Source: Chloroflexota bacterium
GTDB taxonomy: Bacteria > Chloroflexota > Dehalococcoidia > E44-bin15
Direction of reading: 5' to 3'
Assembly: GCA_034189695.1 (NCBI GenBank)
Contig: JAXHUA010000141.1
Coordinates: 3,341-67,340, forward strand
Length of the DNA stretch: 64,000 bases
Below, in pieces: positions 2,180 through 63,766 of the stretch; position 1 is the first letter of the stretch, and each line of letters starts with the position of its first letter. The notes below the pieces were generated by a model that made no database searches, was not told the DNA's origin, and saw nothing but the letters and a program-made list of their open reading frames with translations. A program made the position numbers and the translations under genes.

Positions 2180-2219
2180 CTTCCCCAGCCGTTTCCTTTA
2201 GCGTTGCACCCACACCACG

Positions 2220-3094: not shown

Positions 3095-3100
3095 TCAGCA

Positions 3101-3238
3101 ATGCCCAAGCGGACATATCAACCCAAGAGAATACCAAGGAAGCGCAAACACGGCTTCCTGAAGCGAATGAGCACCCGTGGCGGTAGAGCAGTGCTGAAGA
3201 GGAGGAGGCTAAGGGGTCGGGTACGGCTCGCTGTGTAG
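3101..3238 (+). CDS. rpmH: 50S ribosomal protein L34
   Basis: [40 protein letters not shown] is the canonical L34 sequence; the ORF tool starts earlier at 3005, but the conserved N-terminus begins at 3101. Confidence 0.9.
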
Positions 3239-3239
3239 A

Positions 3240-3605: not shown

Positions 3606-3837
3606 GCGTTGCAGTTTCGCGGAAGTCCCGATGCGGGTTGCTTTGGGGCTGATTCGCTTCTATCAGATGACCGTATCGCAGGTAATGCCGCATTCGTGCC
3701 GCTTCGTCCCCTCCTGCTCTCAGTACACTTTTGAGGCGATTGCTAAACACGGCCTGTTAAGGGGCATTTGGCTGGGGTCGAAACGGCTTGCCCGTTGTCA
3801 TCCCTTCAATCCAGGGGGATACGACCCCGTCCCCTGA
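3586..3837 (+). CDS. yidD: membrane protein insertion efficiency factor YidD
   Basis: LIRFYQ...SPxxxxSCRFxPSCSQY...HG...G..LGxKRLxRCHPF is the YidD signature; the true start may be the internal Met at 3631. Confidence 0.85.
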
Positions 3838-3870
3838 TGTCCCTTCTCCTGCCGCTCATATGATGCCTTC

Positions 3871-5007: not shown

Positions 5008-5027
5008 TGTAGCGCAGCGCTGTATCG

Positions 5028-6588: not shown

Positions 6589-6624
6589 CCCTTGACGGCA
6601 CCCTCACCATTTGCTACTTTGCAT

Positions 6625-6890
6625 AGGAAAAGGCGACGACGGAGACGAGTACGGGGGACACGGCGCTCAGCGAGTCTGGTCCGGTGAGAGCAGACGCGAC
6701 CCTCCCTCTGAAAATCCCTCCCGAGCTGCCAACCGAACGCGGCACGTCAGTGCGCCAGTAGACTTGGCCGGCCTCGTCAGCCGTTATCCCGACGGAGGCA
6801 TGAATGTGCCTTCAACGAGTGCCCCGCACGCGGGGAAGTAGGGTGGTACCGCGGGCTATGAGCTCGTCCCTTGAGGACGGGCTTTTCTTA
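6625..6890 (+). ncRNA. T-box riboswitch leader (Ile-tRNA-responsive, inferred) with intrinsic terminator, upstream of ileS
   Basis: The T-box consensus AAGUAGGGUGGUACCGCGG lies at 6836-6854, directly followed by an 8-bp GC hairpin (6862-6882) and a T-tract (6883-6888). The 5' boundary is approximate. Confidence 0.7.
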
Positions 6891-6950
6891 TAGGTGGCTA
6901 CGCCAGGCGCATTCGAATCAAGACTGCACATGCAGAAGCGAGAGAACCGC

Positions 6951-38565: not shown

Positions 38566-38793
38566 TTATCTGATACTACTTGTTGTTATCATGGAATACC
38601 AGGTGCCTCAATTCGGATGAAGGAGGCAGCGCGAATAAGGGGGAGAGGGAGGTGTTACAGGTATAGCGAGCGGGCGGGAGCTAATGGCCAAGGATGAAGC
38701 TGGCGAGGGGCATGCTGCGGCGTTGGCCGTTGTGTCATCTGGCTGGACAGGCCACACCGCACGGCGGGGCAATGTCCGTTGGAGGGGTCGCGG

Positions 38794-45714: not shown

Positions 45715-45828
45715 GGCGAATCCGTGAAAGCCAGTCATCCGCCAGACAAGCGAACTGAGAGTCACGACGGCTCCGCACACGGGCGGGGGCGGCAGGTGTA
45801 CGGAGCAAAGAGGACTGAGGGACAACCG

Positions 45829-48800
45829 ATGGACGAACTGACGAACACAGGACAGCGAGCTGCCGCATCGGCGGAAACGCATTCCGCTGGGTCGGTGACG
45901 CCGGACGATGGGCTGTACCGCTCTTTTGCCGAGTACGCCTCCGATTTCATCTGGACCATGGACATGAGCCTGCGCTACACCTACGTCAGTCCATCCGTGA
46001 CAAGCCTCCTGGGCTACACTGTCGAGGAGGCGAAGGACCTGAGGCTGGAAGACTTGATGGACCAACAGTACATTGACCTGGCTGCCAGCGTGCTGGCTGA
46101 GGAGTTGTCGGTCCAGCAGACACCTGACCTGGGGAAGTCGCGAACCTTGGAGTCCGAGCTGAAGCGCAAGGATGGTTCGACCGTGTGGGTCGAGTCAAGG
46201 ATGAAGTTCGTGCGAGATGCGAACGGGGAGCGAGTAGGCATCTCGGGGATCTCGCGTGACATAACGGAGCGGAAGCAGGCTCAGCAGAAGATAGAGCACC
46301 TCACACGGTTGTTGCGTGCCATCCGCAATGTCAATCGGCTCATTACGAAAGAGAGGGACCGCGACGCGCTGCTGGAGGCGGCGTGTCGCAATCTCGTTGA
46401 CACCCCGGGCTATGACAGCGCGTGGGTCTGTGTGTTTGGCGAACGTGGACGGCCGGTGTCCGTTGCTCAGGCCGGTCTGGGGGCGTGTTTCGTGCCGATG
46501 GAGGAGTGGCTGGTCGGGGGCAACCTGTCGAGCTGTGGTGAGAAGGCTTCGAAGGGGCCTGGTGTGGTAGTAACCAGGGCCTCGACTCGCGCCTGCGGCG
46601 ATTGCCCGTTGCTCTCCTGTTGTGCCAGCAGCTTGGCTGTGACGACTCGACTGGAGTGCGACGGGAAAGTCTACGGCGTGCTGTCGATCGTAGCCCCCTT
46701 GTGGCTCAAACCAGACACGGAGGAGCGGATGCTGCTCCAGGAGGTGGCGATGGACATCGCCTTCGCTCTCCAGACCATGGAATCGGAGGAGGAGCGCCGG
46801 GGTGCGGAGGAGGCGCTGAAGGAGTCAGAGGAACTCTCCCGGGGCCTGCTGGAGGCGGTGACGGTCGGGACGTACATTGTCCAGGACGGCAAGTTCCAGT
46901 ACGTGAACCCGCGGTTCCAGGAGATAACAGGTTACACCGGGCACGAGCTCCTCGGTACCCAGTCTCTGGACTACGTGCATACCGAGGACAGGGAGACGGT
47001 CCGTGGGAAGGCGATAGACTGTCTCAAGGGCAGGAGCAGTTCGGCCTACGAGTACCGGTACCTGCGCAAGGACGGCGACGTACTGTGGATTCTGGAGAGG
47101 GTGGCATCCATCGTGCATCGGGGGCGCCTGGCTACGGTGGGCAGCTTCATGGACATCACCGAGCGCAAACGCGCAGAGCACGCGCTGCGCGATAGCGAGG
47201 AGAAATACCGCAACCTGGTCGAACGAGCCAACGACGGTATCCTGATCATCCAGGGGGGCATCATCAAGTACGCCAACCAACGGTTGGCCGAGATGGGCGG
47301 GTATACGCTGAGCGACCTGATCGGGGTCCCATTCATCAGCTTCGTCCACCCTGACGAAGTCCGCAATGCGGCCAATCGCTACAAGCGACGGATGGCGGGA
47401 GAGACCCTTGAATCCGTGTACGAGACTGTTCTCAGGCGCAAGGACCGGTCCGACCTCCACGCCGAGATCAATGCCGGGGTGGTCACATACGATGACAGTG
47501 CCGCCGACCTGGTCTTCGTCCGCGACACCACAGAGCGCAGGATGGCTGAGGAGAACGCGCGGCAGTCCGAGATCAAGTATCACACCGCTCTCGAATCGGC
47601 GCGGGACGGTATCATCATAATCGACTCGGACGGCATCGTCGTTGATGTCAATCAAACGTGCCTGGGTGCGTTGGGATGCAACTCCAAAGACGAGGTGGTG
47701 GGGTCCCATGTTGTCGGCCTGCTGGCGCCGGAAACCCAGCGGCAAATGGAGCGGGGACTGCGGGGGAGTCTTGAAAAGACGCTGGTCGAGGGCAAGGGGT
47801 ACGTCACCAATCTCGAACTGGTGGCGCGCTCCGCAGACGGAAGGCAGTTCCCCATTGAGGTGAACGTTTCGCGCCTGAGCGATGAAAGGGGTCAGGGGAG
47901 AGGGAGCGTGATCGTGATTAGAGACATCACGGAGCGCAAGCGCGTGGAGAAGCAGCTCCTCGACCACACGATGCGCCTCGAGGCCCTTCATGCCATAAGC
48001 GCCGCGGTGATCCAGTCGCTCGATCTGGACACCATGCTGAAGAGCGCGCTCGACAAGGTGGTCGAGGTCATCGGAGCGAACGCTGGGTACATACACCTGT
48101 TCGACACTGAAAGCAGGGAACTGGTCCTGAAGGCGCAGCGCGGCCTCTCACAGCGGTACATTGAAGCGATAGGCAGACTCAGCGTGCGTGAGGAGGCGAT
48201 GCAGCGCTGGGCGACATACCCGGAGCCATCGTTCCGACCGGACGGCATCGTCGACCAGTTGGGCGACCGGTCGGTGGGCGCTGCCGACGGGTCCGACATG
48301 CTGCGGATTCTGGTGTCCATACCGCTGTGGTCGAAATCAGGAATGCAGGGGGGCCTTACGCTTGTTGGGAACACGTCGCGCCACTTCCCCCCCGAGGAAC
48401 TCGACCTCCTCAAGGCCATCGGCAACGAGATAGCGGTAGGAATAGAGAACGCCAGATTGCTTGGAAAGACCAAGCAGCTCTCCATAACGGATGAGCTGAC
48501 GGCGCTGCACAATCGCCGCCACTTCTATGAGGTGCTGGAGAACGAGATGAACCGCACCCAGCGCTACGGTCACTCCTTCTCACTGGTGATGGTCGACCTC
48601 GATGGTTTCAAGGAGTACAACGACAAGTACGGCCACACCAACGGTGATACCGTGCTGAGGTCGCTTGCCCAGATGCTCAAATCGTTGCTGAGGAAGAGCG
48701 ACACCGCGTTCCGCTACGGTGGAGATGAGTTCACCATCATTCTCCCTGGTACCGAGGTAGAGAAGGCGAAGAAGATAGTCGACCGGATACGGGACAGATG

Positions 48801-49611
48801 GCCGGAGATACCGAAGGCGGAATCGGCGGCACTGGATAACCCGCTGGGGTTCAGCGCCGGCATCGGCCAGTACCCCGACGATGCCGAAACCGCCGATGGA
48901 CTGATATTCCTCGCCGACACCGCCCTGTATCACTCCAAGAGGACCGGCGGGTACAGGTCAACCGTTGTGTCCGACCTGCCGAGCCTGGCGTTGAAGCATC
49001 ACGACAGAGCCACGCTGGACCACGTGTACGCCCTCTCGGCGACGGTGGACGCCAGGGACCCGTTCACTTACGGCCACTCCGAACGAGTCGCCACGATAGC
49101 GGAGATGATTGGGAGGGCGGCGGGTCTGCCCCCGGAAGAACTCGCCGACCTGGAGTTTGGCGCTCTGCTGCATGACATTGGCAAGGTTGGCGTTCCCGAC
49201 TCGATTCTCACCAAACCCGACAAACTCACTGAAAAGGAGTGGAGGGTGATGCGTAAGCATCCGGGTGAGGGAGCGAAGATAATCGGGCATGTCAAGGAGC
49301 TGGCTTCCGTGGTTCCCATGGTGCGGCACCATCACGAGTGGTACGATGGCAGCGGGTATCCGGACGGGATCAAGGGTGAAGAGATTCCCATCTGCGCTCG
49401 AATCATCAGCATAGCGGACGCCTATGACACCATGACCACGCTGCGTCCCTATCGGGTGCCAATGTCGCAGAGGGCGGCGTTGGAGGAACTGCGGCGCTGC
49501 TCCGGCACTCAGTTTGACCCGGAGCTGGTCGAGCACTTCGCCAGCGTTCTGAGTGAGGCGGATGCCCATGACGCAACGGGGGCGAAGTCGGTGTTCCCAG
49601 CGCGAAAATAG
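45829..49611 (+). CDS. paralogous multi-PAS - Cys-rich GAF-like - PAS - GAF - GGDEF - HD-GYP signalling protein
   Basis: About 1260 aa (1295 aa if the GTG at 45724 is used). The C-terminal 600 aa are highly similar to the upstream gene (LEALHAISAAVIQSLDLDTML, RKSD I-site, FRYGGDEFTIILPG, HDIGKVGVPD...HHEWYDGSGYPDGI). There is a Cys-rich insert (CGDCPLLSCC...LECDG) at about 46380-46700. Confidence 0.85.
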   Translation: MDELTNTGQRAAASAETHSAGSVTPDDGLYRSFAEYASDFIWTMDMSLRYTYVSPSVTSLLGYTVEEAKDLRLEDLMDQQYIDLAASVLAEELSVQQTPDLGKSRTLESELKRKDGSTVWVESRMKFVRDANGERVGISGISRDITERKQAQQKIEHLTRLLRAIRNVNRLITKERDRDALLEAACRNLVDTPGYDSAWVCVFGERGRPVSVAQAGLGACFVPMEEWLVGGNLSSCGEKASKGPGVVVTRASTRACGDCPLLSCCASSLAVTTRLECDGKVYGVLSIVAPLWLKPDTEERMLLQEVAMDIAFALQTMESEEERRGAEEALKESEELSRGLLEAVTVGTYIVQDGKFQYVNPRFQEITGYTGHELLGTQSLDYVHTEDRETVRGKAIDCLKGRSSSAYEYRYLRKDGDVLWILERVASIVHRGRLATVGSFMDITERKRAEHALRDSEEKYRNLVERANDGILIIQGGIIKYANQRLAEMGGYTLSDLIGVPFISFVHPDEVRNAANRYKRRMAGETLESVYETVLRRKDRSDLHAEINAGVVTYDDSAADLVFVRDTTERRMAEENARQSEIKYHTALESARDGIIIIDSDGIVVDVNQTCLGALGCNSKDEVVGSHVVGLLAPETQRQMERGLRGSLEKTLVEGKGYVTNLELVARSADGRQFPIEVNVSRLSDERGQGRGSVIVIRDITERKRVEKQLLDHTMRLEALHAISAAVIQSLDLDTMLKSALDKVVEVIGANAGYIHLFDTESRELVLKAQRGLSQRYIEAIGRLSVREEAMQRWATYPEPSFRPDGIVDQLGDRSVGAADGSDMLRILVSIPLWSKSGMQGGLTLVGNTSRHFPPEELDLLKAIGNEIAVGIENARLLGKTKQLSITDELTALHNRRHFYEVLENEMNRTQRYGHSFSLVMVDLDGFKEYNDKYGHTNGDTVLRSLAQMLKSLLRKSDTAFRYGGDEFTIILPGTEVEKAKKIVDRIRDRWPEIPKAESAALDNPLGFSAGIGQYPDDAETADGLIFLADTALYHSKRTGGYRSTVVSDLPSLALKHHDRATLDHVYALSATVDARDPFTYGHSERVATIAEMIGRAAGLPPEELADLEFGALLHDIGKVGVPDSILTKPDKLTEKEWRVMRKHPGEGAKIIGHVKELASVVPMVRHHHEWYDGSGYPDGIKGEEIPICARIISIADAYDTMTTLRPYRVPMSQRAALEELRRCSGTQFDPELVEHFASVLSEADAHDATGAKSVFPARK

Positions 49612-49649: not shown

Positions 49650-51560
<1,911 letters not shown>

Positions 51561-53019: not shown

Positions 53020-54969
53020 TCAGGGCAGGCCCAAGGCCATTCTCAGCGTGTAGTCGGCGGTGGCTGGGCCCCATCCATGCGCGAGGGCCAGGACGCGGCG
53101 TCTTGCGCCGCACAGGCCCGCCTGAGGGGACGTCACGTCGATGACGTCGAACAGGTCCTGGCCGCAGTTCATCGGGGCCAGGAGTTCGCCCCCGAGCCTC
53201 TCCATCTCGGCGTCTCTGATGACTGCAACGCCCCGCTGATGCGCCTTGTCGGTCGTGTCGAGGTTGATGTCCTGTACCTGCACGAGCCGGTCGCAGACAT
53301 CTTCGATGTCGTTCCAGCTCCACTCCTCGGTCATCAGGGCATCGCCGAATACCTGGGCTCGGTTGGCGGAAGCGATCTCCTCCCGGTAGCGCCCGCGAAG
53401 GATGGCATGGTCCGTGCCGTAGCTGTACGTGCTCTCGTCGCTTGCCTGCGGGTTCGTCAGGTAGGCCTTCTGGGCGATGAACAGTATGACGTCGGGGACC
53501 ATGTCGAGCAGGCGCTGCACGGCGGTGAGGGCGCTCTGGCCGGGATGAATGGTGAAGGCGGGCGTCTGGATTATGGCGCTGGAGGGCGAGTACGAGGTGA
53601 GTTCGAGACCGGCCCGGGCGAAGAGGAAGGAGAGAAGCTGGAAGATGTTGCGTGCGCCTGCCTGCCAGGTGAACTGCCTCCTGGCGCGCCAGCGTTCCAG
53701 CAGTGACCACCCATCGCGGGCATGCAGGACGAAGGTGCTGTGCCCGGGCGCGGTGACGTGCTCCCACGCTTCCAGCCAGAAGGCGGGCGCGGTTGCGGAC
53801 TTGGGGCCTTCGGAGGTGTGGTAGCCCAGGCGGAGGACGGCCTCGCTGCCCGGAGTGATTGGGGACTGGGGGTCGTTGTAGCGGCCGTCGTCGTTGCGCA
53901 GGGTGAGTTGAAGGCGCCCCGAGAAAGGCCGGATGGCGGTTGTCAGGGCGATGACGTCGTCGGAGAGCTCTACGGACTGGGGGAGTATTCGGGCGCGCCA
54001 CACGGCGTACGGGGCGCAGAGCCAGGCGTGGGAGGCGTCGTGGGTCAGGACGACGCCGTAGGCGCTGTCGAGGTTGAAGGGCACCGGCTCGCGCCACAGG
54101 CTGGAGATGAAATCGGCGCTGGGGAGTGAATGGCTCCAGTGGGGGCGCGAGTATGGCTCGTCGCCGGCGTAGCGTTCGACGAAGAAGAGCCGGCAGACGT
54201 CGGGGATGTCCAGCGAGGGTGCGAGGTACTCGGTGTACGAGTCGGCGCTGGCGGCGATGACCTCCTGCAGCTCGGACCACGAGTCGGGGGCCATGGTGTA
54301 GCCGTCGCCCAGGACGCACGTCCACAGCCCTGGCCCGCCGGCGGCGTCAACGCCGCTCACCGCCGCGTTCCAGTCTCCAAAATGGACCACGGCGATGCCG
54401 GTCACGGCGGTGAGCGTGCTAGTCCAGGGTGCCGGCTGCTCCCAGACGCCTCCGATGCGGCGGCGCCGGTAGACTGTCGCCCCGTCGGAATACAGGACCA
54501 GCGCATCGCCGTTCGCCTTGAAGCAGGCGGCCACGCGGTAGTCGGCGCAGTCGCCGCCGATGTAGGTCATGTCGATGGGGTCGCCCCAGGTGTCGCCGCA
54601 GGTTGTGCTCTCCCTGCGCCGCAGCCAGCCGGTGCTCTGCACCCAGAAGGCGAGGACCTCATTGCCCCGCGAGCATACGGCCACGTCGGAGCCGGTGTAG
54701 CCCCAGTAGTACCAGTGTGAGAAGTCGCTCTCCGGCCCGGGGTCGGGGACGCGCTGGCGATAGATGCCGCCTCCGCCCCTGAGCCGTACCAGGCTGCCGT
54801 CGCCGGGCATGGTGGCGTCCGTGTGGCAGTCGGGCTCCTCGCCGCTGTACAGCCGCTCCCATCGCAGGCGGGTGGCTGCCCCGAGCTTCTCGACCAGTTC
54901 TACCCTGAGGTACGGCCTGGCCGTGGCGCTCCTCTGGGCGGCCAGCAAAGCGCTCGGCAGTGCTCTCAT
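53020..54969 (-). CDS. large phage-like structural protein (649 aa), beta-rich, possible tail/host-interaction or glycosidase-like protein
   Basis: No Walker motifs; Trp/Tyr/Gly-rich repeats (WYYWGYTGSD, YSDGATVYRRR) suggest a beta-propeller/BNR-like fold; positioned after the head genes. Confidence 0.35.
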   Translation of the reverse strand: MRALPSALLAAQRSATARPYLRVELVEKLGAATRLRWERLYSGEEPDCHTDATMPGDGSLVRLRGGGGIYRQRVPDPGPESDFSHWYYWGYTGSDVAVCSRGNEVLAFWVQSTGWLRRRESTTCGDTWGDPIDMTYIGGDCADYRVAACFKANGDALVLYSDGATVYRRRRIGGVWEQPAPWTSTLTAVTGIAVVHFGDWNAAVSGVDAAGGPGLWTCVLGDGYTMAPDSWSELQEVIAASADSYTEYLAPSLDIPDVCRLFFVERYAGDEPYSRPHWSHSLPSADFISSLWREPVPFNLDSAYGVVLTHDASHAWLCAPYAVWRARILPQSVELSDDVIALTTAIRPFSGRLQLTLRNDDGRYNDPQSPITPGSEAVLRLGYHTSEGPKSATAPAFWLEAWEHVTAPGHSTFVLHARDGWSLLERWRARRQFTWQAGARNIFQLLSFLFARAGLELTSYSPSSAIIQTPAFTIHPGQSALTAVQRLLDMVPDVILFIAQKAYLTNPQASDESTYSYGTDHAILRGRYREEIASANRAQVFGDALMTEEWSWNDIEDVCDRLVQVQDINLDTTDKAHQRGVAVIRDAEMERLGGELLAPMNCGQDLFDVIDVTSPQAGLCGARRRVLALAHGWGPATADYTLRMALGLP

Positions 54970-55335: not shown

Positions 55336-55423
55336 GGGGCCGTTCATGCCCCTCACTTCGCTCGGGACAAGGTTCGACAGGCCTGCCCTGAGCTTGTCGA
55401 AGGGCTCACCACGAACGGCTGGG
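55336..55423. repeat. 88-bp repeat unit (MITE/REP-like), a perfect inverted copy of 58135-58222
   Basis: GGGGCCGTTCATGCCCCTCACTTCGCTCGGGACAAGGTTCGACAGGCCTGCCCTGAGCTTGTCGAAGGGCTCACCACGAACGGCTGGG. It contains an internal hairpin TTCGACA...TGTCGAA and imperfect terminal inverted repeats CCGTTC/GAACGG. Confidence 0.9.
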
Positions 55424-55885: not shown

Positions 55886-56518
55886 CTATGGCCCTGGGTC
55901 TGTGGAGAGGCCCCTGATGGGTGCCGCCGGAGTGTAGAGGCGGGTGCCCCTCACCTTGCCGCGTCGCCCGAGCCTCCTCAGTTCCTCCCTGAAGTGGGAC
56001 AGCCTTTGCCGTCCCTCGACGGCAAAGCGGTCGGGCGTGTCGATGCCGCCAAGGTTGACCTGGTTGATGGCGAAGGCGGCCCACTCCACCAGGGCATACC
56101 CTTCGGCGCCGTTGGCTATCAGGTCCTCAAAAGGTGGTGGGATGGTCGAGGTGTCGCCGTCGAGGGTGTGGAGCTTGCCGTAGGCGACGCGGCAGTCGGA
56201 GCCGTCGGGCACTTCGTCGCCGAGCACCGTGAGCGTGTCTTTCCAGATGGCGAAGCGCTGGTAGCACGGCGGGAAGCGGCCCACGGGGTACTCGGCCGCC
56301 TGGACGAGGACGCGGTCGGACAGGGTCGAGATGTCGATCTCACGCGAGCCCTCGGTGGTGGGCAGGAGCGCCGTTTGCTCCTGCGGCACCGCCAGCGAGA
56401 ACTCCCGCACCGCGTGGGCGATGTGGCGGTCGAGTTCGTCGTCGCTCCAGCGTCGGTTCTCCGGGTCCTCGTCGTGCAGGTCCCGTCTGACTGTGCAGCG
56501 CATCTCGCTCAGGTCCAT
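55886..56518 (-). CDS. putative head-tail connector/adaptor protein (gp6-like), tentative
   Basis: 210 aa, acidic, helical N-terminus (MDLSEMRCTVRRDLHDEDPENRRWSDDELDRHIAHAVREF), directly downstream of the capsid gene as in HK97-type head modules. Confidence 0.4.
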   Translation of the reverse strand: MDLSEMRCTVRRDLHDEDPENRRWSDDELDRHIAHAVREFSLAVPQEQTALLPTTEGSREIDISTLSDRVLVQAAEYPVGRFPPCYQRFAIWKDTLTVLGDEVPDGSDCRVAYGKLHTLDGDTSTIPPPFEDLIANGAEGYALVEWAAFAINQVNLGGIDTPDRFAVEGRQRLSHFREELRRLGRRGKVRGTRLYTPAAPIRGLSTDPGP

Positions 56519-56529: not shown

Positions 56530-56660
56530 TTCTGTCTTCACTCCCCCCTCCCTCCCGCTTCCTCCCTCCCGCGAGGGGAGGGAGGAACCGCTCCACACTC
56601 CCTTGAGGGAGAGGGCAAGGCCTGCCCTGAGCTTGTCGAAGGGGTGAGGGTGAAACGCCC
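56530..56660. repeat. composite intergenic repeat: GA/CT palindromes (TTCCTCCCTCCC-GCGA-GGGGAGGGAGGAA; CTCCCTTGAGGGAGAGGG) plus a CCTGCCCTGAGCTTGTCGAAGGGG unit
   Basis: Shares the CTTCGACAAGCTCAGGGC core with copies at 55379, 58083, 58153, 61697, 61789 and a diverged copy at about 17490-17515. Confidence 0.8.
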
Positions 56661-56674: not shown

Positions 56675-57577
56675 CTACGAGCCAACCGGCCTCACGCCGA
56701 TGAGGCGCGCCAGCTTCACGGTGCTGAAGAGCGCCAGGCCGACGTACCACTTGATGCGCGTCCGCGTGGCGTCCTTGGCCTCGAGCTGGCCGACGCGCTC
56801 CACCTGTATCCCGCCGGGCGCGGTCAACCCGCACAGCGCCCCCTCGCCCATCTGGAAGGCGTAGATGGTGGAACAGTCGGAGCTGGTGCCGACGACCTTG
56901 TTGTCGCCTACCCAGTCGCTGATGGCCACCGGGATGCCGTTGTACAGCTCGATGAACGCGCCCCAGTCGTCGCGCTCCACCTGGAGGTACGAGCCGGCGG
57001 CGCGGGAGAGCTGGTTGAGGCTTCGGCGGGTGCGTCGGCTCATGAGCAGCAGCTCCGGCTTGCCCCCTTTGACCATGTCTACCAGCTCATCGAGCTTGTC
57101 GAGCGTGAGTGCTCCGCCGTTGTCGCCCATGGAGAGCGTCTGGCCGGTGGTCTGGCATATCTTGTCGACGCCCTCGAAGTCCTTGGATGCCCCGGTGCCC
57201 AGCCCGTTGATGAAGGTGTCCTCGAACTCGTGGCGCACCGCCTTGGCGTTCAGCTCGACCACCGCCGCCTCGACGTCCTGGAGATTGGAGCGGGTCGCCT
57301 TGATGAAGTTGTCCACGTCGGCGTTGGCCCCGACGATCTCCAGCCCGGCGGTCACCTGCTCGAGGGTGGGCGCCGTCTCCGCGCTCCACTCCTCGTTCTC
57401 GTCGTACCACGCCACGGTGGGCAGGGTGCTCTCACGGTTGTACGTCAGGCCGTTGCCCACGATCTCAATGAAGGGCAGCTTCTGAAGGACGGGGGAGTCC
57501 TTGATGATGGTCTCGATGACGCCCAGAAGCAGGACGTCGTTCGACAGTTTGGATGCTTCGGCGAGTGTGATAGCCAT
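56675..57577 (-). CDS. putative major capsid protein (HK97-fold-like)
   Basis: 300 aa; translationally coupled (3-nt gap) to an upstream coiled-coil scaffold-like protein; C-terminal region alpha/beta-rich, like MCPs. The family assignment rests on context and composition only. Confidence 0.5.
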   Translation of the reverse strand: MAITLAEASKLSNDVLLLGVIETIIKDSPVLQKLPFIEIVGNGLTYNRESTLPTVAWYDENEEWSAETAPTLEQVTAGLEIVGANADVDNFIKATRSNLQDVEAAVVELNAKAVRHEFEDTFINGLGTGASKDFEGVDKICQTTGQTLSMGDNGGALTLDKLDELVDMVKGGKPELLLMSRRTRRSLNQLSRAAGSYLQVERDDWGAFIELYNGIPVAISDWVGDNKVVGTSSDCSTIYAFQMGEGALCGLTAPGGIQVERVGQLEAKDATRTRIKWYVGLALFSTVKLARLIGVRPVGS

Positions 57578-57580: not shown

Positions 57581-58051
57581 CTATGCCTCCTTTCCCAGTG
57601 CGTAGTGGATCTTCTCCCTGGGGGACATGGCGGACAGATCGGGGACGGCGCGCTCCGGGGCGCCGGCCGGCACGTGCGTCGCCTTGAGGTCTTCCTCCAG
57701 TGTTTGCCGCACCCGCCCCGCCATATCCCGTGCCCGGTCGAGTGACGCGTCGATGTCGGCGATGGTCGCGCCGGCGACCATCTCCTCCGGGATCTGCGGG
57801 TTGGCGGCGACGAGCGCCGCGCGGTAGCTGGCCACCGCCTCATGCAGCGTTTCGGTCGCCGCCGCCAGCTCGGCGTCCCTCTCATCGAGCGCCGCCTTCA
57901 TCGAGGTCAGCTCCTGCTGGCCGGCGTCGTTCGCCGCCAGCGCCTCGGCAAGCTGCGCCTGGAGTTCGCCGAGCCTGGCGTCTCTCTCCCCAAGCTGCGC
58001 TTTCAAGCCCTCCAGTTCCGTCTGTACCATTGCAGTCTCTTCCTCGTTCAT
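57581..58051 (-). CDS. putative scaffolding protein (coiled-coil)
   Basis: 156 aa, strongly helical Ala/Glu/Leu-rich (LEGLKAQLGERDARLGELQAQLAEALAAND...), immediately upstream of the capsid gene. Confidence 0.5.
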   Translation of the reverse strand: MNEEETAMVQTELEGLKAQLGERDARLGELQAQLAEALAANDAGQQELTSMKAALDERDAELAAATETLHEAVASYRAALVAANPQIPEEMVAGATIADIDASLDRARDMAGRVRQTLEEDLKATHVPAGAPERAVPDLSAMSPREKIHYALGKEA

Positions 58052-58059
58052 TCCTGGCC

Positions 58060-58340
58060 TCCTTGAAAGTCTTCGCTTTCACCCCTTCGACAAGCTCAGG
58101 GCGAACCGTTGGCAAGGTCGTGGTGAGCCGCCGGCCCAGCCGTTCGTGGTGAGCCCTTCGACAAGCTCAGGGCAGGCCTGTCGAACCTTGTCCCGAGCGA
58201 AGTGAGGGGCATGAACGGCCCCGGGCGAACGCTTGGCACTCACCCTAGCCCTCTCCCGTCAAGGGAGAGGGAATGTGCTGCCGCGAGCCGCGGGAGGTGC
58301 AACTGTCCTCCCTCCCCCAGAAGGAGGGGGATGCCTCCTT
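58060..58340. repeat. repeat-dense intergenic region (two CCCTTCGACAAGCTCAGGGC units, a CCCTCTCCC-GTCAA-GGGAGAGGG hairpin, and a CCTCCCTCCCCC/GGAGGGGG hairpin)
   Basis: Direct inspection. The units recur at 61683-61860 and 56530-56660. Confidence 0.8.
58135..58222. repeat. 88-bp repeat unit, reverse-complement copy of 55336-55423 (100% identity)
   Basis: Exact reverse complement over 88 bp. Together the two copies bracket 55424-58134 (scaffold, capsid and two small head genes). Confidence 0.9.
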
Positions 58341-58395
58341 CACTCGCCAGCGTGCCACGCACTCTCACGCTCCCCGCTGGCGACTGCACCGAGGA

Positions 58396-58411
58396 TAGAA
58401 CACATGTTCTA
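58396..58411. promoter_or_regulatory. operator-like palindrome TAGAAC-ACAT-GTTCTA, 26 nt upstream of the -35 of the R-M gene promoter
   Basis: 6-bp perfect arms. The same TAGAAC-N4-GTTCTA motif occurs at 63497-63512 and nowhere else in the window. The downstream promoter is TTGACA (58438-43)-17-TACCAT (58461-66), followed by an AGGAGG RBS. Confidence 0.55.
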
Positions 58412-58492
58412 CGCGCGTCAAGCCAGAAATGTCACGGTTGACATGCTTGAGAGCGGCCACTACCATTGTGGTGCTCGCATAGGAGGCGTTGG

Positions 58493-61400
58493 ATGGCAGC
58501 GGACCTCAAGCCGCTCCGGGAGTACGCACGCGCGGTGGCGCGGGAACTGGGGGTGGGCAACACCACGGAGCACAGCCACCGGCCGGCGCTGAAGGGCCTG
58601 CTCGAGGCGCTCGACGGCAGGGTCGTGGCGACCAATGAGCCGAAGCGCATAGCCTGTGGTGCCCCAGACTTCGTGGTCACACGTGGTGCCTCGGTGGTGG
58701 GCTACATCGAGGGCAAGGACGTCGGCAGCAGCCTCGACGACGCCGAGCGTTCGGAGCAGATGGAGCGCTACCTCCCATCGCTGAGCAACCTGGTGCTCAC
58801 CGACTACCTCAGCTTCCGCTGGTACGTCGACGGCCACCTGAGGCTATCCGCCCGCCTGGGCCGGGCGTCACTGTCGGGCAAGGTGCTCGTGGACAGGGAC
58901 GGCCTCAACGCCGTGGCCGATCTGCTCGCCTCCTTCCTGTGCCACACCGCCGAGGGCGTCGGCACACCGAGGGAGCTGGCCGAGCGCCTGGCGCGCCTGG
59001 CCCGCCTGGCCCGCGGCCTTATCGCCAACGCGATTGCCAGCGAGGCCGAGGCCGGCCCCCTCCACGGCCAACTGGCCGCGTTCCGTGACAACCTCATTCC
59101 CGACCTGAGCCCGGAGCGGTTCGCCGACATGTATGCCCAGACCATGGCCTACGGCCTGTTCGCCGCGCGCTGCGCCGCGGACGGCGGCTGCTTCACTCGC
59201 CAGAACGCCGGGTACCTCCTGCCCCGGACCAACCCCTTCCTGCGCAACCTCTTCGGCGACATCGCCGGCCCGAACCTCGACGACCGAGTCGCCTGGCTCG
59301 CCGACGACCTGGCGCAGGTGCTGGCGCAGGCCGACATGGACGCCGTGCTGCGCGATTTCGGGCGGAGGACGGCCACCGAGGACCCGGTGGTGCATTTCTA
59401 TGAGACCTTCCTGGGCCGGTACGACCCGAGGGAGCGCCAGGTACGCGGGGTGTACTACACCCCCGAGCCGGTGGTGTCCTACATCGTGCGCTCGGTCGAC
59501 CACCTGCTCAGGACGCGCTTCAACAGCCCCGAGGGCCTGGCCGACCCCCGCGTCCTCATCCTCGACCCCGCTGTGGGCACCGGCACCTTCCTCTACAGCA
59601 TAGTCCGGAAGATCCACGAGGCCTTCGTGCGCCAGGGGCAGGGTGGCCTCTGGAACGACTACGTGGCCGACCGTCTCCTGCGGCGCCTGTTCGGCTTCGA
59701 GCTGCTGATGGCCCCCTACGCCGTGGCCCACCTCAAGCTGGGGCTGCTGCTCCGCGAGACCGGCTACCGGTTCCAGGCCGACCAGCGCCTTGGCGTATAC
59801 CTGACCAACACCCTGGAGGAGGCCTTCACCCGCTCCCAGCTCCTCGCCGGGTTCAACCGCTACATCGTTGACGAGGCCAACGCCGCCGCGCGCATCAAGA
59901 AGGAGAAGCCCATCATGGTGGTGCTGGGCAATCCACCCTACGCGGGCTTCTCCGCCAACGCGAGCACGCGCATGGTGAAGGAGGGCAGGAGCAAGCGGAT
60001 GAAGCGTGACTTGACCTGGATTGGCCGCCTCATCCAGGACTACAAGCAGGTCGATGGCGGGCCGCTGGGAGAGAGGAACCCCAAGTGGTTGCAGGACGAC
60101 TACGTCAAGTTCATCCGCTTCGGCCAGTGGCGCATCGAGCAGACCGGCCACGGCATCCTCGCGTTCATCACTAACCACGGCTACCTGGACAACCCGACCT
60201 TCCGCGGCATGCGCCAGTCGCTGATGAATACGTTCAGTGACATCTACGTCCTGGATCTCCACGGCAACGTGAAGAAGCGCGAGAGCGCGCCCGACGGCGG
60301 CCCCGACCAGAACGTGTTCGATATCCAGCAGGGGGTCGCCATCGGCATCTTCGTCAGGGAGCCTGGCCGGGAGAGGCCCGGGCGGGTGCAGCATGCCGAC
60401 CTTTGGGGGGCGCGTGGTGACTGGCCCGATCCCGAAGAGGGGACGAAGTACCGCGCGCTCGCGGAGACGGACGTCTCAACGACCTCTTGGGAGCCCTTGG
60501 CCCCCGCGACACCGGCCTATTTCTTCGTGCCCCGGGACGAGGTGCTGGCTGCCGAGTACCATCAGGGGTGGAAGGTAACGGACATCTTTCCGCTCCACAG
60601 CGCGGGCATCGTCACCGCGCGCGACAGCCTCGCGGTGGCATGGAGCGCGCAGGAAATGTGGCACACACTTGCGGACTTCGCTTCGCTGGAACCCGAGGCC
60701 GCGCGAGAGAAGTACAGGCTCGGTGCCGACGCCCGGGACTGGAGCGTGTCAATGGCCCAGGCGGACGTCACGGCCAGCGGTCCCACCCCCGACCGCGTGG
60801 TACCCCTGCTGTATCGGCCCTTCGACGTCAGGTTCACCTACTACACCGGGCGCTCCCGTGGCTTCCAGTGCATGCCGCGCCCAGACGTCATGCGCCACAT
60901 GCTGGGCGGCGCCAATGTTGCGCTCATCACTGTTCGCAAGGTGCCCCGCGGCCAGGCGGCGGGCTACTTCTCTGCTGCGCGCTTTCCGGCGAGCAATGGG
61001 GCGATACGCTCCGACAACCAGAGTATCGACTACGTTATCCCGCTGTACGCTTGGGCCGCACAAGGCGAGATGCAGTTTCAGGGAGAGCCGCGCCGGGCCA
61101 ATTTGAACCCGGCCTTCAGCAACGCCGTTTCGGACGCGCTAGCGCTGCGCTTCGTGGCCCACGGCAGCGGTGACCTGGAGCAGTCTTTCGGCCCGGAGGA
61201 CGTGTTCCACTACATCTACGCAGTGCTCCACTCGCCGGCGTACCGCAGCCGCTACGCGGACTTCCTCAAGACCGACTTCCCGCGCGTTCCCCTGACCTCG
61301 GAAAGGGGGCTCTTCGCGGCGCTCGCCGCCAAGGGCGCCCAGCTGGTCGCGCTGCACCTCATGGAGTCGCCCCTCCCGGCCACCCTCATCACCGGCTATC

Positions 61401-61681
61401 CGGTGGCGGGCACCGACATAGTGGAAAGGGTGAGCTACGACGCCGCGACCGGCCGCGTCCACATCAACAAGACGCAGTACTTCGATGGCGTGCCCCGCGA
61501 CGTCTGGGAGTTCCACGTAGGCGGCTACCAGGTGTGCCATAAATGGCTCAAGGACCGCAAGGGACGCAAGCTGGCCTACGATGACAAGACCCACTACCAG
61601 CGGGTTGTGGTGGCGCTGAACGAAACCGTACGCCTGATGGCTGAGATCGACGCCCTCATCCCGTCGTGGCCCATCGACTAG
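58493..61681 (+). CDS. Type IIG (MmeI-like) restriction-modification fusion enzyme: N-terminal PD-ExK nuclease, N6-adenine methyltransferase and C-terminal specificity domain
   Basis: The N-terminus has PDFVV...GYIEGKD (a D...ExK nuclease motif like MmeI). MTase motif I is LDPAVGTGTFL; motif IV is VLGNPPYAGFS (NPPY). The C-terminal HVGGYQVCHKWLKDRKGRKL...ETVRLMAEIDALI block is the TRD/coupler seen in MmeI/Type ISP C-termini. There is no helicase. ATG 58493 follows an AGGAGG RBS; the ORF tool opens at TTG 58466. Confidence 0.75.
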   Translation: MAADLKPLREYARAVARELGVGNTTEHSHRPALKGLLEALDGRVVATNEPKRIACGAPDFVVTRGASVVGYIEGKDVGSSLDDAERSEQMERYLPSLSNLVLTDYLSFRWYVDGHLRLSARLGRASLSGKVLVDRDGLNAVADLLASFLCHTAEGVGTPRELAERLARLARLARGLIANAIASEAEAGPLHGQLAAFRDNLIPDLSPERFADMYAQTMAYGLFAARCAADGGCFTRQNAGYLLPRTNPFLRNLFGDIAGPNLDDRVAWLADDLAQVLAQADMDAVLRDFGRRTATEDPVVHFYETFLGRYDPRERQVRGVYYTPEPVVSYIVRSVDHLLRTRFNSPEGLADPRVLILDPAVGTGTFLYSIVRKIHEAFVRQGQGGLWNDYVADRLLRRLFGFELLMAPYAVAHLKLGLLLRETGYRFQADQRLGVYLTNTLEEAFTRSQLLAGFNRYIVDEANAAARIKKEKPIMVVLGNPPYAGFSANASTRMVKEGRSKRMKRDLTWIGRLIQDYKQVDGGPLGERNPKWLQDDYVKFIRFGQWRIEQTGHGILAFITNHGYLDNPTFRGMRQSLMNTFSDIYVLDLHGNVKKRESAPDGGPDQNVFDIQQGVAIGIFVREPGRERPGRVQHADLWGARGDWPDPEEGTKYRALAETDVSTTSWEPLAPATPAYFFVPRDEVLAAEYHQGWKVTDIFPLHSAGIVTARDSLAVAWSAQEMWHTLADFASLEPEAAREKYRLGADARDWSVSMAQADVTASGPTPDRVVPLLYRPFDVRFTYYTGRSRGFQCMPRPDVMRHMLGGANVALITVRKVPRGQAAGYFSAARFPASNGAIRSDNQSIDYVIPLYAWAAQGEMQFQGEPRRANLNPAFSNAVSDALALRFVAHGSGDLEQSFGPEDVFHYIYAVLHSPAYRSRYADFLKTDFPRVPLTSERGLFAALAAKGAQLVALHLMESPLPATLITGYPVAGTDIVERVSYDAATGRVHINKTQYFDGVPRDVWEFHVGGYQVCHKWLKDRKGRKLAYDDKTHYQRVVVALNETVRLMAEIDALIPSWPID

Positions 61682-61682
61682 G

Positions 61683-61870
61683 CGGCCTCACCCTCACCCC
61701 TTCGACAAGCTCAGGGCTGGCCTTGCCCTCTCCTCGCCACGGTCGAGTCTTCGACCCTCGAGGGAGAGGGGATGTGCCCCCGCACCGTTCACCCTTCGAC
61801 AGGCTCAGGGCGAACGGTGATGGCCGCCGTTCGCGGTGAGGCCTTCGCCCCGGCTGAGGGCAGGCCCTCA
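61683..61870. repeat. repeat-dense intergenic region between the R-M gene and the portal gene (units CTCACCCTCACCCCTTCGACAAGCTCAGGGC, CCCTCTCC...GGGAGAGGG, CACCCTTCGACAGGCTCAGGGCGAACGG)
   Basis: Same repeat family as at 55.3, 56.6 and 58.1 kb. Confidence 0.8.
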
Positions 61871-63238
61871 TCCACCCTCTGCCCCGCTCTGGCGGGCGTT
61901 GAGGTCGCGGTTCATCTGGAGGATGCGCTTTCGCTCCTCCAGCCAGGCGTCGAACTCGAGTCCGGGGCTGTCCACCCCGAGGTACTCCATGGCGCGGCGG
62001 CGCGAGTGGACGCCGCTCTGGATGAGCGCCACCTCGGTGGCCGCCTCCCGCTCGCGGTCGCGGGGCAGCACCGGTCCCCACACGATGCGGTGCGACAGGC
62101 GGCCGAAGCGCTCGCCGGTGAAGCGCTCAATGAGCGCCAGCACCATCTCGTTGCGCCGGCGGTAGGCCGCAGTGCGCACCAGGCGCTTGCGGGCCACCTT
62201 CTGGAGCAGCGGCTGCATCTCGATCTCCAGCGCCACCCCTGACAGGTCGCGGCCGGCGGTGCCGAAGGCGGCGCGGGGGGACTCGGAGATGTCGTGCAGC
62301 GTGCGGTACAGTAGGTCGATGTAGTCGATGTGGAGCCGCACCCCACCTCCCTGGAGCAGGTCGAGCAGGTACGCCCGCGCCTCCTCGGGAATGTTCCACA
62401 CCGCCCCGGGCTGCACCGCGATGTCCTGCGACGACTCCACGTTCTCCAGCACGGCGATGGGGTTGCCCGAAAGCTCCAAGATGCGTGAGAGCTGCGACAG
62501 CGCCCGGTTCAGCTCGCGCTGCGCCTCCATCAGCACTGGAATGTCCGACACGCCCCAGAAACGCTTCGGCTGGCACAGGTTGGGGAATATGACGAACGGG
62601 ATGAAGCCATATGGGTTGGGCGCCGTCGTGATGCACTCGTCGTCGAGCCACAGCTCGAAGGCCCTGTCGGTCCACACCTCCGCCACCCACGCCGTCCTTC
62701 CTGACGGCCTGCTGCCGTGGAGCAACTCCACCTCGTCGGCGCTGAGCTGGTAGCGAGAGGCGACCCGGTACACCGTGCCGACATCGTCTGGCAGCCACCA
62801 GGCGTAGAGCCCCTGCACGTCGGGCGCGGTCACCCGGACGCGCCCGTCGGCCACGTCCCAGGTCACCTTGTATGCTGCGTCGCCGAGGACAGCGCAGTCG
62901 GTCTCGGTGTCGAAGTCGAGGGCTTCCAGGTTGTTGTCGCGGTACACCTGGTGCAGCGCCGCCTCCGCCGCCACGGCGCGCTGCCGCGCGTCGTCACCGT
63001 CCTCGACGGGATCGACGGTGAAGCCCATGCCGGACATGAGGTACGAGGTCGTCTTGTCGACGATGGCCTTGGCGTAGTTGAAGGTGAGGTGCTTCTCGCC
63101 CCTGGTGGCCCGCGCCGGCCACTGCGCGCCGTTGTAGAAGGCCAGGCTCCCGGCATAGCGCTTCATCCGGTCGCGGTCCGTGCGCGCGAGCTGCTGCGGC
63201 AGGGCTGGACCGTTCATCCTCCACCCCCCGCGGCGCAC
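61868..63238 (-). CDS. phage portal protein (SPP1/HK97-like portal family)
   Basis: 456 aa; N-terminal FNYAKAIVDKTTSYLMG-type portal motif, central GFIPFVIFPN, and an acidic C-terminus. The start is GTG 63238 or ATG 63217, overlapping the upstream HTH gene stop. Confidence 0.6.
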   Translation of the reverse strand: MRRGGWRMNGPALPQQLARTDRDRMKRYAGSLAFYNGAQWPARATRGEKHLTFNYAKAIVDKTTSYLMSGMGFTVDPVEDGDDARQRAVAAEAALHQVYRDNNLEALDFDTETDCAVLGDAAYKVTWDVADGRVRVTAPDVQGLYAWWLPDDVGTVYRVASRYQLSADEVELLHGSRPSGRTAWVAEVWTDRAFELWLDDECITTAPNPYGFIPFVIFPNLCQPKRFWGVSDIPVLMEAQRELNRALSQLSRILELSGNPIAVLENVESSQDIAVQPGAVWNIPEEARAYLLDLLQGGGVRLHIDYIDLLYRTLHDISESPRAAFGTAGRDLSGVALEIEMQPLLQKVARKRLVRTAAYRRRNEMVLALIERFTGERFGRLSHRIVWGPVLPRDREREAATEVALIQSGVHSRRRAMEYLGVDSPGLEFDAWLEERKRILQMNRDLNARQSGAEGG

Positions 63239-63486
63239 GCCTGCGGTCTGCGTCCGGCGATGACGCGATAGACGGTGCGCCGGCTCACGCCGAAGCGCCG
63301 CGCCAGCTCGTGCACCGCCACGCCATCACCATAAAGCCGCACCATCCGCTCGTTCCTCAGCTCCTTGGCGGTCTGCTTGCCCGGTCGGTCGTAGCGGCAG
63401 GTCGCCAGGGGGCAGTTGAGGCAGGAGGGGAAGAGGTCGCACCCCTCGTCGCGGTAGGCGCAATGCTCGGGCACGAAGTCGTCCAT
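63214..63486 (-). CDS. small Cys-rich (CX6CX5CX2CX4C) HTH DNA-binding protein; candidate controller or terminase-small-subunit-like protein
   Basis: 90 aa; five Cys near the N-terminus in HCAYRDEGCDLFPSCLNCPLATC; a C-terminal HTH ELARRFGVSRRTVYRVI. It is the first gene of the portal operon, and its mRNA appears leaderless. Confidence 0.55.
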   Translation of the reverse strand: MDDFVPEHCAYRDEGCDLFPSCLNCPLATCRYDRPGKQTAKELRNERMVRLYGDGVAVHELARRFGVSRRTVYRVIAGRRPQACAAGGGG

Positions 63487-63492: not shown

Positions 63493-63521
63493 ATGATAGA
63501 ACTAATGTTCTATACTGTCAA
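63493..63521 (-). promoter_or_regulatory. minus-strand promoter TTGACA-17-TATCAT for the HTH-portal operon, with the TAGAAC-TAAT-GTTCTA palindrome inside the spacer
   Basis: The -35 is the reverse complement of 63516-21 and the -10 the reverse complement of 63493-98. The palindrome at 63497-63512 overlaps the -10 and spacer. The ATG at 63486 is 6 nt downstream of the -10, which implies a leaderless transcript. Confidence 0.55.
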
Positions 63522-63635: not shown

Positions 63636-63766
63636 TTGACGCGGCGGGCGTCCTGTGGTATTCTTACTGCTCCAGCAAGCGGGGGCGAAGAAGCGGGGCC
63701 TTCATTTGGGCGCTTGGGCTCCGTGGAGTCAGTAGCGAAACCGACCGCAGGGTCGGTTTCTTTTTT
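63636..63766 (+). ncRNA. candidate small RNA or attenuator leader: an extended -10 promoter, an approximately 95-nt transcript, and a strong intrinsic terminator
   Basis: TTGACG (63636-41), 17 nt, a TG-n-TATTCT extended -10 (63656-64); then the hairpin GAAACCGACC-GCAG-GGTCGGTTTC (63737-60) plus a TTTTTT tract (63761-66). There is no ORF of 30 aa or more in between. Confidence 0.35.

Follow-up and report, generated by a model that had tools for sequence, protein, structure and literature searches.

The gene at positions 58493..61681 (+) of the DNA stretch analysed here (the window, 64,000 nt in full) is predicted to encode an intact, stand-alone restriction-modification (RM) enzyme of the DrdV lineage, which falls in the Type IIL subclass of Type IIG. 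We consider it likely that this gene is carried as cargo in a phage-derived gene cluster, that it has a promoter of its own, and that a second copy of the cluster promoter re-couples the genes downstream of it.

Coding Evidence and Domain Organization of the RM Protein

An uninterrupted reading frame runs from 58466 to 61681 (+), and the ATG at 58493, with the sequence AGGAGG (58481–58486) 6 nt upstream, opens a single polypeptide of 1062 aa, as the preliminary description had proposed. The protein has the same length and sequence as NCBI protein P0001. Codon-position GC in this frame (0.67/0.46/0.89) marks it as the coding frame, and the pattern is absent from the antisense reading frame at 58868–60394. 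An independent Logan contig is identical over 58242–61810. The protein search returned at least about 8,000 scored homologues, and among the matches listed from the 5.8 billion proteins searched the closest was 65% identical. No full-length homologue was found in GenBank phages, and NCBIfam gave nothing useful for the RM enzyme or its neighbours.

The protein had been described as combining a PD-ExK nuclease, a gamma-class N6-adenine methyltransferase and a C-terminal specificity region. All of the motifs quoted in support were located (P58-D59-F60 ... E73-G74-K75, D358-PAVGTGTFL and N480-PPY), and their residues are invariant in an alignment with 35 homologues. The N-terminal PD-(D/E)xK endonuclease domain (aa 1–135; 58493..58897, +), containing D59, E73 and K75, was assigned from this invariance, an AF2 model and a match to DrdV. 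AF2 pLDDT values in this region were 73–93, and a Foldseek search matched the nuclease-only DrdV chain 7lvv_D with a TM score of 0.71 normalised to the target. The resemblance of the nuclease to DrdV is weak in sequence; in a profile alignment PD and ExK line up with the DrdV segment "PD...GYWESKD," a stretch that is not significant by itself. The next segment is a helical connector (aa 136–296; 58898..59380, +), modelled by AF2 as all-helical from H135 to H289, which occupies the position of the connector described for DrdV (bioRxiv 10.1101/2021.01.06.425610).

The methyltransferase domain (aa 297–640; 59381..60412, +) matches Pfam N6_Mtase (3.6e-10), and its motif I (xGxGxF, here D358PAVGTGTF) precedes motif IV (N480PPY), which is the order of the gamma class. 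It aligns with the methyltransferase domains of DrdV, LlaBIII and LlaGI. The C-terminal half of the enzyme matches Pfam Type_ISP_C (1.5e-89) over 341 of the 342 profile positions and contains the target-recognition domain (aa 697–1050; 60581..61642, +). The core of this domain (aa 701–870) is the most variable segment of the protein, with a mean identity to homologues of 36% compared with 66–71% in other domains. From the AF2 model we used the N-terminal domain and local Foldseek matches only. Because the full-length model is poor beyond residues 1–240 (mean pLDDT 57), the methyltransferase and recognition parts draw their structural support from sequence and profile matches. No Pfam helicase family at E <= 0.01, no Walker A and no DExx motif was detected in the RM protein, in agreement with the earlier statement that helicase motifs are lacking.

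Assignment to the DrdV Lineage

The protein matched the PADLOC model REase_MTase_IIG (PDLC03610) over its full length (5e-285), and its best match in a PDB sequence search was DrdV (7lo5), with 8e-48, or 1.8e-59 when a profile was used. The recognition domain also aligns to that of DrdV. LlaBIII and LlaGI followed, aligned over the methyltransferase and recognition parts only. DrdV, a Type IIL enzyme from Deinococcus wulumuqiensis (PDB 7LO5/7LVV), is likewise a single chain of about 1030–1060 aa with no ATPase, and the order of its domains is the same: PD-(D/E)xK nuclease, helical connector, gamma N6A methyltransferase and Type ISP-type recognition domain. The RM protein shows the following features of the DrdV group: the nuclease, the gamma methyltransferase, the Type ISP/DrdV-type recognition domain and the lack of an ATPase. 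DrdV is known to place its methylation on a single strand of an asymmetric site, to cleave at a fixed distance and to require several bound sites, and its methyltransferase and recognition domains are akin to those of Type ISP enzymes (bioRxiv 10.1101/2021.01.06.425610). The two proteins differ in that they are only about 20–25% identical (22% in the Foldseek alignment) and in that the gene studied here lies inside a phage-derived structural cluster; the recognition core is also divergent, so that CATGNAC, the DrdV target, is not expected as the target of the RM enzyme.

The enzyme had originally been labelled MmeI-like. The comparison with family HMMs upheld the Type IIG class but not the MmeI family, and it identified the specificity domain as one of the Type_ISP_C/DrdV type. 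In its predicted logic the RM protein does resemble the MmeI family (Type IIL, PDB 5HR4): a lone polypeptide, without a separate methyltransferase, would modify a single strand and cleave at a fixed distance. The solitary gene and the order of nuclease, gamma-methyltransferase and recognition domain are also alike, and there are weak matches to MmeI_Mtase (21.3 bits) and, in Foldseek, to 5hr4 (7.5e-3). However, the MmeI_Mtase score is under the cut-off of 27 bits, the four MmeI-specific Pfam domains (MmeI_N, MmeI_hel, MmeI_TRD and MmeI_C) have no match at E <= 0.01, the recognition domain is that of Type_ISP_C, and the matches to DrdV (5e-22 in Foldseek), LlaBIII and LlaGI are 10–20 orders of magnitude better than the one to MmeI. 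The MmeI family is a separate lineage, and it is extremely improbable that the RM protein is a true member of it.

Database names suggest another identity: NCBI/PGAP calls the protein a "type ISP restriction/modification enzyme," and its JGI homologues are called "predicted helicase." Were it a Type ISP enzyme, or the BREX methyltransferase PglX, it should need an ATPase motor or partner proteins to work. [quoted passage not shown] Type ISP enzymes, however, have a RecA-like ATPase motor placed between nuclease and methyltransferase, and they cleave once two translocating enzymes have collided head-on, whereas the protein here carries no helicase signature and is motor-less, is 1062 aa long compared with 1406–1578 aa for LlaGI and LlaBIII, and aligns by profile only to LlaBIII residues ~837–1458. 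The PADLOC PglX model gave 16.2 bits over aa 313–484, the methyltransferase core only. Those neighbouring proteins that were scanned with PADLOC produced no match, whether to BREX partners (brxA/B/C, pglZ, brxL) or to other systems, and Pfam and PHROGs identified the neighbours as structural genes. Both identities, which the preliminary description had already set aside, have next to no chance of being correct.

The DrdV-like enzyme is also solitary, as had been claimed: no separate methyltransferase or specificity gene adjoins it, nor do its homologues have one next to them. In the window it is surrounded by structural genes, the genes beside homologues in three further contexts are unrelated, and no conserved partner gene was found downstream of homologues, where the genes are mutually unrelated and absent from the window.

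The RM Gene Lies in a Recurrent Cargo Slot of a Phage-derived Cluster

The RM gene is located in a phage-derived head/short-tail gene cluster that is placed between gyrB and a c-di-GMP-II riboswitch in a Chloroflexota chromosome. The first gene of the cluster (63214..63486, −) encodes a small HTH protein with matches to HTH_7 (9.4e-10) and to Mor and small-terminase-like PHROGs; this protein is 90 aa long. The portal protein gene (61868–63238, −) was recognised by SPP1_portal (1.7e-16) and phrog_64 (8.8e-32), and the major capsid gene (56675–57577, −) by phrog_212 (3.4e-66). A putative scaffold protein gene encoding a coiled coil (57581–58051, −) was assigned from a sub-threshold Phage_scaffold match and its conserved position; 30 relatives likewise have the putative scaffold flanked by portal and capsid. 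A conserved protein of 649 aa (53020–54969) had no Pfam, PHROG or PDB match. Searching the window with the relatives' proteins turned up neither a terminase nor an integrase, and no tRNA gene marking an attachment site was found. The "phage structural operon" of the preliminary description is, within the window, better called a chromosomal, phage-derived cluster that has no terminase and is not demonstrably a complete prophage. Because of this lack of a terminase in the window, the element that carries the "phage cargo" may be a defective or domesticated one. Clusters of this kind adjoin gyrB in at least three genomes that are Dehalococcoidales-like.

The neighbours and strands agree with the earlier claim that the RM gene lies antisense between portal and scaffold. 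The portal-scaffold gap is 3816 nt here compared with 80–420 nt in relatives without cargo. The two genes are 80–420 nt apart in 7/7 viral and 19/24 genomic relatives showing both of them, and are thus directly adjacent in 26/31. An RM homologue is absent from 66/66 related loci, and these counts together support acquisition of the RM gene. The remaining 5/31 relatives carry other cargo at the junction, so that the place between portal and scaffold has taken up cargo recurrently in this family of clusters. The RM gene itself, absent from the junction in relatives and preceded by a promoter-like site and a Shine-Dalgarno sequence (SD) of its own, has the apparent hallmarks of a cargo gene.

Prophage cargo genes that have their own promoter and terminator are known as morons. 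The RM gene resembles a moron as an apparently independent, oppositely oriented transcription unit between conserved late genes, with a presumed defence function. It differs in that its insertion is accompanied by a second operator-bearing cluster promoter before the downstream structural genes, and in that its host element has no terminase in the window.

Flanking Repeats and Support for the Assembly

Repeats lie on both flanks of the RM gene, as noted before. The motif CCTTCGACAAGCTCAGGGC occurs twice to its left (58084 and 58155) and twice to its right (61699 and 61793), and the six copies in the whole window compare with 0.03 expected by chance. On the left (58072..58284), the repeat search found two units with CCTTCGACAAGCTCAGGGC (58072–58102 and 58143–58173) and a hairpin repeat of the form CCCTCTCCC-N5-GGGAGAGGG (58247–58284). 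On the right, where the RM and portal genes converge, the spacer (61682..61867) holds repeats at 61687–61717, 61746–61783 and 61781–61811. This right spacer is strongly structured (MFE −94.3 kcal/mol, z = −2.84) and is possibly a bidirectional terminator, one without a T-tract. The repeat motif was not found in the first eight viral relatives. Related hairpin repeats are present between genes at other loci in Chloroflexota.

The arrangement of the RM gene is known from one MAG contig, and the Logan contig ends inside the repeats, short of portal and scaffold. Such a placement could in principle be an assembly artefact, a chimeric MAG join through the short flanking repeats, and it would be in keeping with this that the repeats are multi-copy, that the k=31 Logan contig breaks in them at both ends and that the junctions are present in one contig only. 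However, the exact repeat matches are just 19–31 nt long, far under the k-mers of modern metagenome assemblers, and the GC3 of the RM gene (0.89) is in line with that of its neighbours (0.83–0.92). The left flank moreover holds a diverged, non-identical copy of the cluster promoter (23/27), and relatives have cargo in exactly the same slot. We consider an artefact very unlikely.

Candidate Promoters and Operators around the Insertion

By consensus match, the only promoter-like sites in 57900–62000 are a divergent pair at 58392–58466. One of them is a sigma-70-like candidate promoter for the RM gene (TTGACA-17-TACCAT; 58438..58466, +), which agrees with the consensus at 10/12 positions and precedes the SD at 58481–58486. 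The other (TTGACG-18-TATCCT; 58392..58421, −) is directed toward the scaffold gene and overlaps the box AGAACACATGTTCT (58397–58410). It appears to be a second copy of the promoter of the cluster. The first cluster promoter (TTGACA-17-TATCAT; 63493..63521, −) overlaps the box AGAACTAATGTTCT (63498–63511) and lies 6 nt upstream of the HTH gene's ATG, and the 27-nt core of the second copy is identical to it at 23 positions.

The AGAAC-N4-GTTCT box occurs twice in the 64 kb, once per cluster promoter, compared with 0.04 expected. The layout GTGACA..TTGACA..GAAC-N4-GTTC-TATnnT is common to about 16 sites in related loci. The arrangement of the first cluster promoter is conserved before the HTH gene in the related loci L002, L004, L016, L017, L049 and L053, and in L032 the same layout follows the cargo of that locus. 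In Firmicutes and Actinobacteria LexA has GAAC-N4-GTTC as its motif, and variants of it are present in Chloroflexi (PMC4951493). The box is a candidate LexA-type operator, although an element-encoded regulator could bind it instead. For the promoters, operators and terminator alike, we infer function from consensus matches.

Discussion

By analogy with DrdV, the variable core (aa ~701–870) of the RM enzyme would read a short, asymmetric site, and the enzyme would methylate one adenine on one strand of the resident DNA. It would then be enzymatically active and leave the DNA hemimethylated, and its role is presumably one of defence. We propose that the gene was inserted as cargo, in opposite orientation, at the portal-scaffold junction. 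This insertion would have cut scaffold, capsid and downstream genes off from the cluster promoter, and the second promoter copy, back-to-back with the RM promoter, would have re-coupled the genes from scaffold onward to the same control. With a sigma-70-like candidate promoter and a ribosome-binding site to itself, the RM gene is probably on while the structural genes are silent, and the host would then be spared superinfection.

Alternatively, the nuclease might not be there for defence. The protein might chiefly methylate, marking DNA so that related enzymes of its family in other places spare it, or it might be a selfish (addiction) module that stabilises the cluster and prevents its loss. 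Methyltransferases are common on phages and prophages, and the RM gene lies in an element that would gain from self-protection. Against this stands the conservation of the catalytic triad and of the whole nuclease domain in homologues (mean identity 56%), which points to selection on cleavage. A fused enzyme would also lose restriction and modification together, which should weaken classical post-segregational killing. A role outside defence is in our view quite improbable.

As for the cluster, a more far-reaching and rather doubtful idea is that it represents an at least partly vertically inherited, domesticated element, GTA-like or capsid-forming-island-like, locally without a terminase and driven by promoters with LexA-type operators, which would serve as a landing pad for defence genes at its recurrent slots, with the family promoter re-installed after each cargo, ahead of the next structural gene.

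The RM gene is an ordinary defence gene, and its enzyme is of a known kind, one further specificity, as yet uncharacterised, in a family of single-chain RM enzymes that is very large and has long been known as such. Names such as "type ISP" and "predicted helicase" in public annotation mislead when they are given to the motor-less, DrdV-like members of this family. The locus would provide a natural example of a defence gene placed in a late structural operon without silencing the downstream genes, and the features that appear to enable this are the antisense orientation, the gene's own promoter, the structured repeat spacers and the re-installed operon promoter with its operator. With its shared promoters and variable cargo, this family of Chloroflexota clusters may merit a study of its own.

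Family and integrity of the restriction-modification enzyme

The restriction-modification (RM) gene occupies 58493–61681 on the + strand, and an ORF scan of the window placed it within an ORF spanning 58466–61681; its start ATG at 58493 lies 6 nt past AGGAGG (58481–58486). Because GC by codon position was 0.67/0.46/0.89, this frame was taken as the coding one, and a 508-aa antisense ORF overlapping the gene lacked the coding-type signature. All motifs that the preliminary description had quoted for a single 1062-aa polypeptide were located in the product: PDF...EGK (D59, E73, K75), DPAVGTGTFL (residues 358–367) and NPPY (residues 480–483). The gene has neither frameshift nor truncation, and homologue alignments spanned 99–100% of its length. 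A Logan contig (k = 31) is an exact copy of 58242–61810 with its ends broken inside repeats; it backs the RM gene itself, and the junctions are beyond its reach.

The enzyme had been described as MmeI-like, and this label did not survive. Pfam scored MmeI_Mtase at 21.3 bits, under the cut-off of 27, Eco57I was also under its cut-off, and no other MmeI domain was found by Pfam. Pfam did match N6_Mtase and, at residues 697–1050, the Type ISP C-terminal specificity domain (1.5e-89, 341 of 342 profile positions), and the PADLOC Type IIG model PDLC03610 covered the protein end to end (5e-285). Among solved structures the top sequence match was the Type IIL enzyme DrdV (7LO5), at 8e-48 or, using a profile of 35 sequences, 1.8e-59. 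The AlphaFold2 model was poor overall (pLDDT 57) and confident for residues 1–240; with it, Foldseek ranked DrdV first (5e-22), with the nuclease-only DrdV chain 7lvv_D at a TM-score of 0.71 normalised to the target, versus just 7.5e-3 for MmeI.

The Type ISP enzymes LlaBIII and LlaGI came next after DrdV, matched over the methyltransferase and recognition parts only. The RM protein has no helicase family by Pfam and neither a Walker A nor a DExx motif, in agreement with the earlier exclusion of Type ISP. PglX was likewise rejected: PADLOC scored it at 16 bits, a match limited to the methyltransferase core. The identical NCBI entry, from a 72,138-nt contig, is titled [quoted passage not shown] and public annotation names this motor-less family “type ISP restriction/modification enzyme” (NCBI/PGAP) or “predicted helicase” (JGI). 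These names appear to derive from the Type_ISP_C domain, although a helicase/ATPase domain is absent.

DrdV has exactly the same architecture as the RM protein, and in its methyltransferase and recognition domains it is homologous to Type ISP enzymes, whereas its cleavage mechanism differs: DrdV remains on the asymmetric site CATGNAC, where one adenine on one strand is methylated, and cuts 10/8 bp downstream upon assembly of several site-bound molecules (bioRxiv 10.1101/2021.01.06.425610). Based on this architecture and the Pfam, PADLOC and structure matches, the RM protein is predicted to be a DrdV-like Type IIL (Type IIG) enzyme, resembling MmeI in general Type IIL working only and standing outside the MmeI family. 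D59, E73, K75, motif I and NPPY were invariant across 35 homologues. The recognition core (residues 701–870) was least conserved, with a mean identity of 36% compared with 66–71% elsewhere, as would be expected for a specificity determinant.

The family is very large: among the matches listed, all but 2 of at least 8,000 scored candidates passed E ≤ 1e-10. Homologues were found in 41 plasmid records (coverage at least 80%, identity about 40%) and in 7 IMG/VR contigs (39–51% identity), and no full-length copy was found among 50,697 GenBank phage genomes. The enzyme itself is ordinary and probably active, and the family to which it belongs is known and abundant. The gene was also said to have no separate methyltransferase or specificity subunit adjacent to it. 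Its neighbors are indeed structural genes, and three homologues on other Chloroflexota contigs (63–65% identity) have unrelated neighbors, including PIN and HicB toxin-antitoxin genes, with downstream genes showing no kinship to one another. The family stands alone, like Type IIL enzymes generally.

Insertion into a recurrent cargo slot

We compared the surrounding phage-derived cluster with relatives having the same head module: 8 contigs from IMG/VR and 59 loci from Chloroflexota genomes. No RM gene homologue was present in any of them, which bears out the proposed acquisition. The portal and scaffold genes were both visible in 31 loci and lay 80–420 nt apart in 26 of these, including the nearest relatives L002, L016 and L017 (capsid 91–92% identical). 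In the window this distance is 3816 nt, and the RM gene lies antisense to both neighbors, as first described.

The other five loci carry different cargo of 1.9–4.9 kb, mostly antisense, at the same junction (L019, 4820–9427; L029, 7500–9376; L032, 7185–9654; L035, 1704–3725; L038, 4562–9495). It includes a dCTP-deaminase-like protein, PD-(D/E)XK nucleases, an HTH-M78 peptidase, a glycosyltransferase, an HD protein and a phosphotriesterase. Locus L018 has cargo at the capsid-adaptor junction (1713–7692) encoding Fic, a beta-helix protein and an AAA_15/21 ATPase. Some of this cargo is defense-like. The RM gene is a clean antisense insertion in a recurrent cargo slot, or hotspot.

Repeat elements were reported on both sides of the gene, and two copies of CCTTCGACAAGCTCAGGGC do lie on each side. 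The six copies, all intergenic, fall within 55.4–61.8 kb (55385–55403, 56624–56642, 58084–58173 and 61699–61811), and GC-rich intergenic hairpin repeats, CCCTCTCCC-N5-GGGAGAGGG, occur at 58247–58284 and 61746–61783. Within the window, neither kind occurs outside the intergenic DNA of the phage-derived region, and the 51 kb of housekeeping DNA contains none. Because many other Chloroflexota loci have related hairpin repeats between their genes, the repeats are a lineage-wide short interspersed family and not ends specific to the RM cassette. The RM and portal genes converge on a 186-nt spacer that consists of the repeats and is unusually structured (z = -2.84), possibly serving as a two-way terminator. 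The observation in the preliminary description is confirmed and, family label excepted, its interpretation stands.

The phage-derived cluster and its chromosomal surroundings

Positions 1–51.5 kb are housekeeping chromosome (Clp ATPase, IleRS-type tRNA synthetase, Mfd, SHMT and Obg), ending with gyrB (49650–51557). The cluster follows at ~51.6–63.5 kb, on the minus strand throughout with the RM gene as sole exception. It encodes an SU10-type adaptor (55886–56518), the major capsid protein (56675–57577), a putative scaffold (57581–58051), the portal (61868–63238), a small HTH protein (63214–63486) and several conserved proteins of unknown function, one of 649 aa. The capsid gene is ~165–180 nt longer in some relatives (L004, 4307–5419; L031, 10001–11065; L055, 3155–4213); in L004 an in-frame extra segment, possibly an insertion domain, lies between capsid residues ~140 and ~135–295 of the window protein.

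The cluster's right-hand edge appears to be the riboswitch region, because beyond the HTH promoter, on its right, comes a c-di-GMP-II riboswitch (Rfam RF01786; 63672–63755, +; 65.4 bits, E 4.7e-13) whose 3' end overlaps a terminator-like hairpin, GAAACCGACCGCAGGGTCGGTTTC plus T6 (63737–63766, +), and after these a + strand signal-peptide ORF starts at ~63826. The same window holds two adjacent + strand giant signaling proteins of 2311 and 1295 aa (38779–45714 and 45724–49611), in which many PAS domains are combined with GAF, GGDEF and HD-GYP-type HD domains.

Similarity searches with proteins of the relatives matched neither a terminase nor an integrase in the window, and no terminase in L015 or L016, two loci from Dehalococcoidales MAGs. 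In more distant relatives TerS and TerL come before the HTH or portal gene; an integrase is present on one viral contig. L015 (scaffold to gyrB) and L016 (HTH to gyrB) keep the window's right-hand synteny as far as gyrB, with 92–93% capsid and 86–87% gyrB identity; at least three genomes therefore share the chromosomal position of the cluster. This head/short-tail gene cluster beside gyrB could be a defective prophage that has been conserved or an element that has been domesticated, and Chloroflexota phage-derived clusters are a widespread family.

Putative promoters and operators

Promoters, operators and terminators were called as consensus matches, from which we infer function. The region 57900–62000 contained only two promoter-like sites, back to back: TTGACA-17-TACCAT (58438–58466, +) for the RM gene, and TTGACG-18-TATCCT (58392–58421, -), which faces the scaffold gene and overlaps AGAACACATGTTCT. 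AGAAC-N4-GTTCT occurs twice in the 64 kb versus 0.04 expected; the second box overlaps the spacer of the HTH gene promoter-like site TTGACA-17-TATCAT (63493–63521, -), 6 nt before the ATG. The scaffold-facing and HTH promoters were alike at 23 of 27 core positions, with the best of 3,000 random windows well below.

Related loci show the architecture GTGACA-N12-TTGACA-N4/5-GAAC-N4-GTTC-TATnnT at some 16 sites (L016, L017, L019, L020, L024, L029, L032, L033, L034, L040, L049, L052, L053, L059 and L068), ahead of TerS, HTH, scaffold, capsid or portal genes. In L032 it stands before the scaffold gene, past that locus's own cargo, and in the closest cargo-free relatives the stretch from portal to scaffold lacks such a site. 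The scaffold-facing site would be the cluster's own promoter, operator included, installed a second time. The conserved architecture is predicted to head the transcription units throughout this family of phage-derived clusters in Chloroflexota. The putative operator box, which LexA or an element-encoded protein may bind, matches the Gram-positive-type LexA motif, suggesting that the structural genes may be under direct SOS control.
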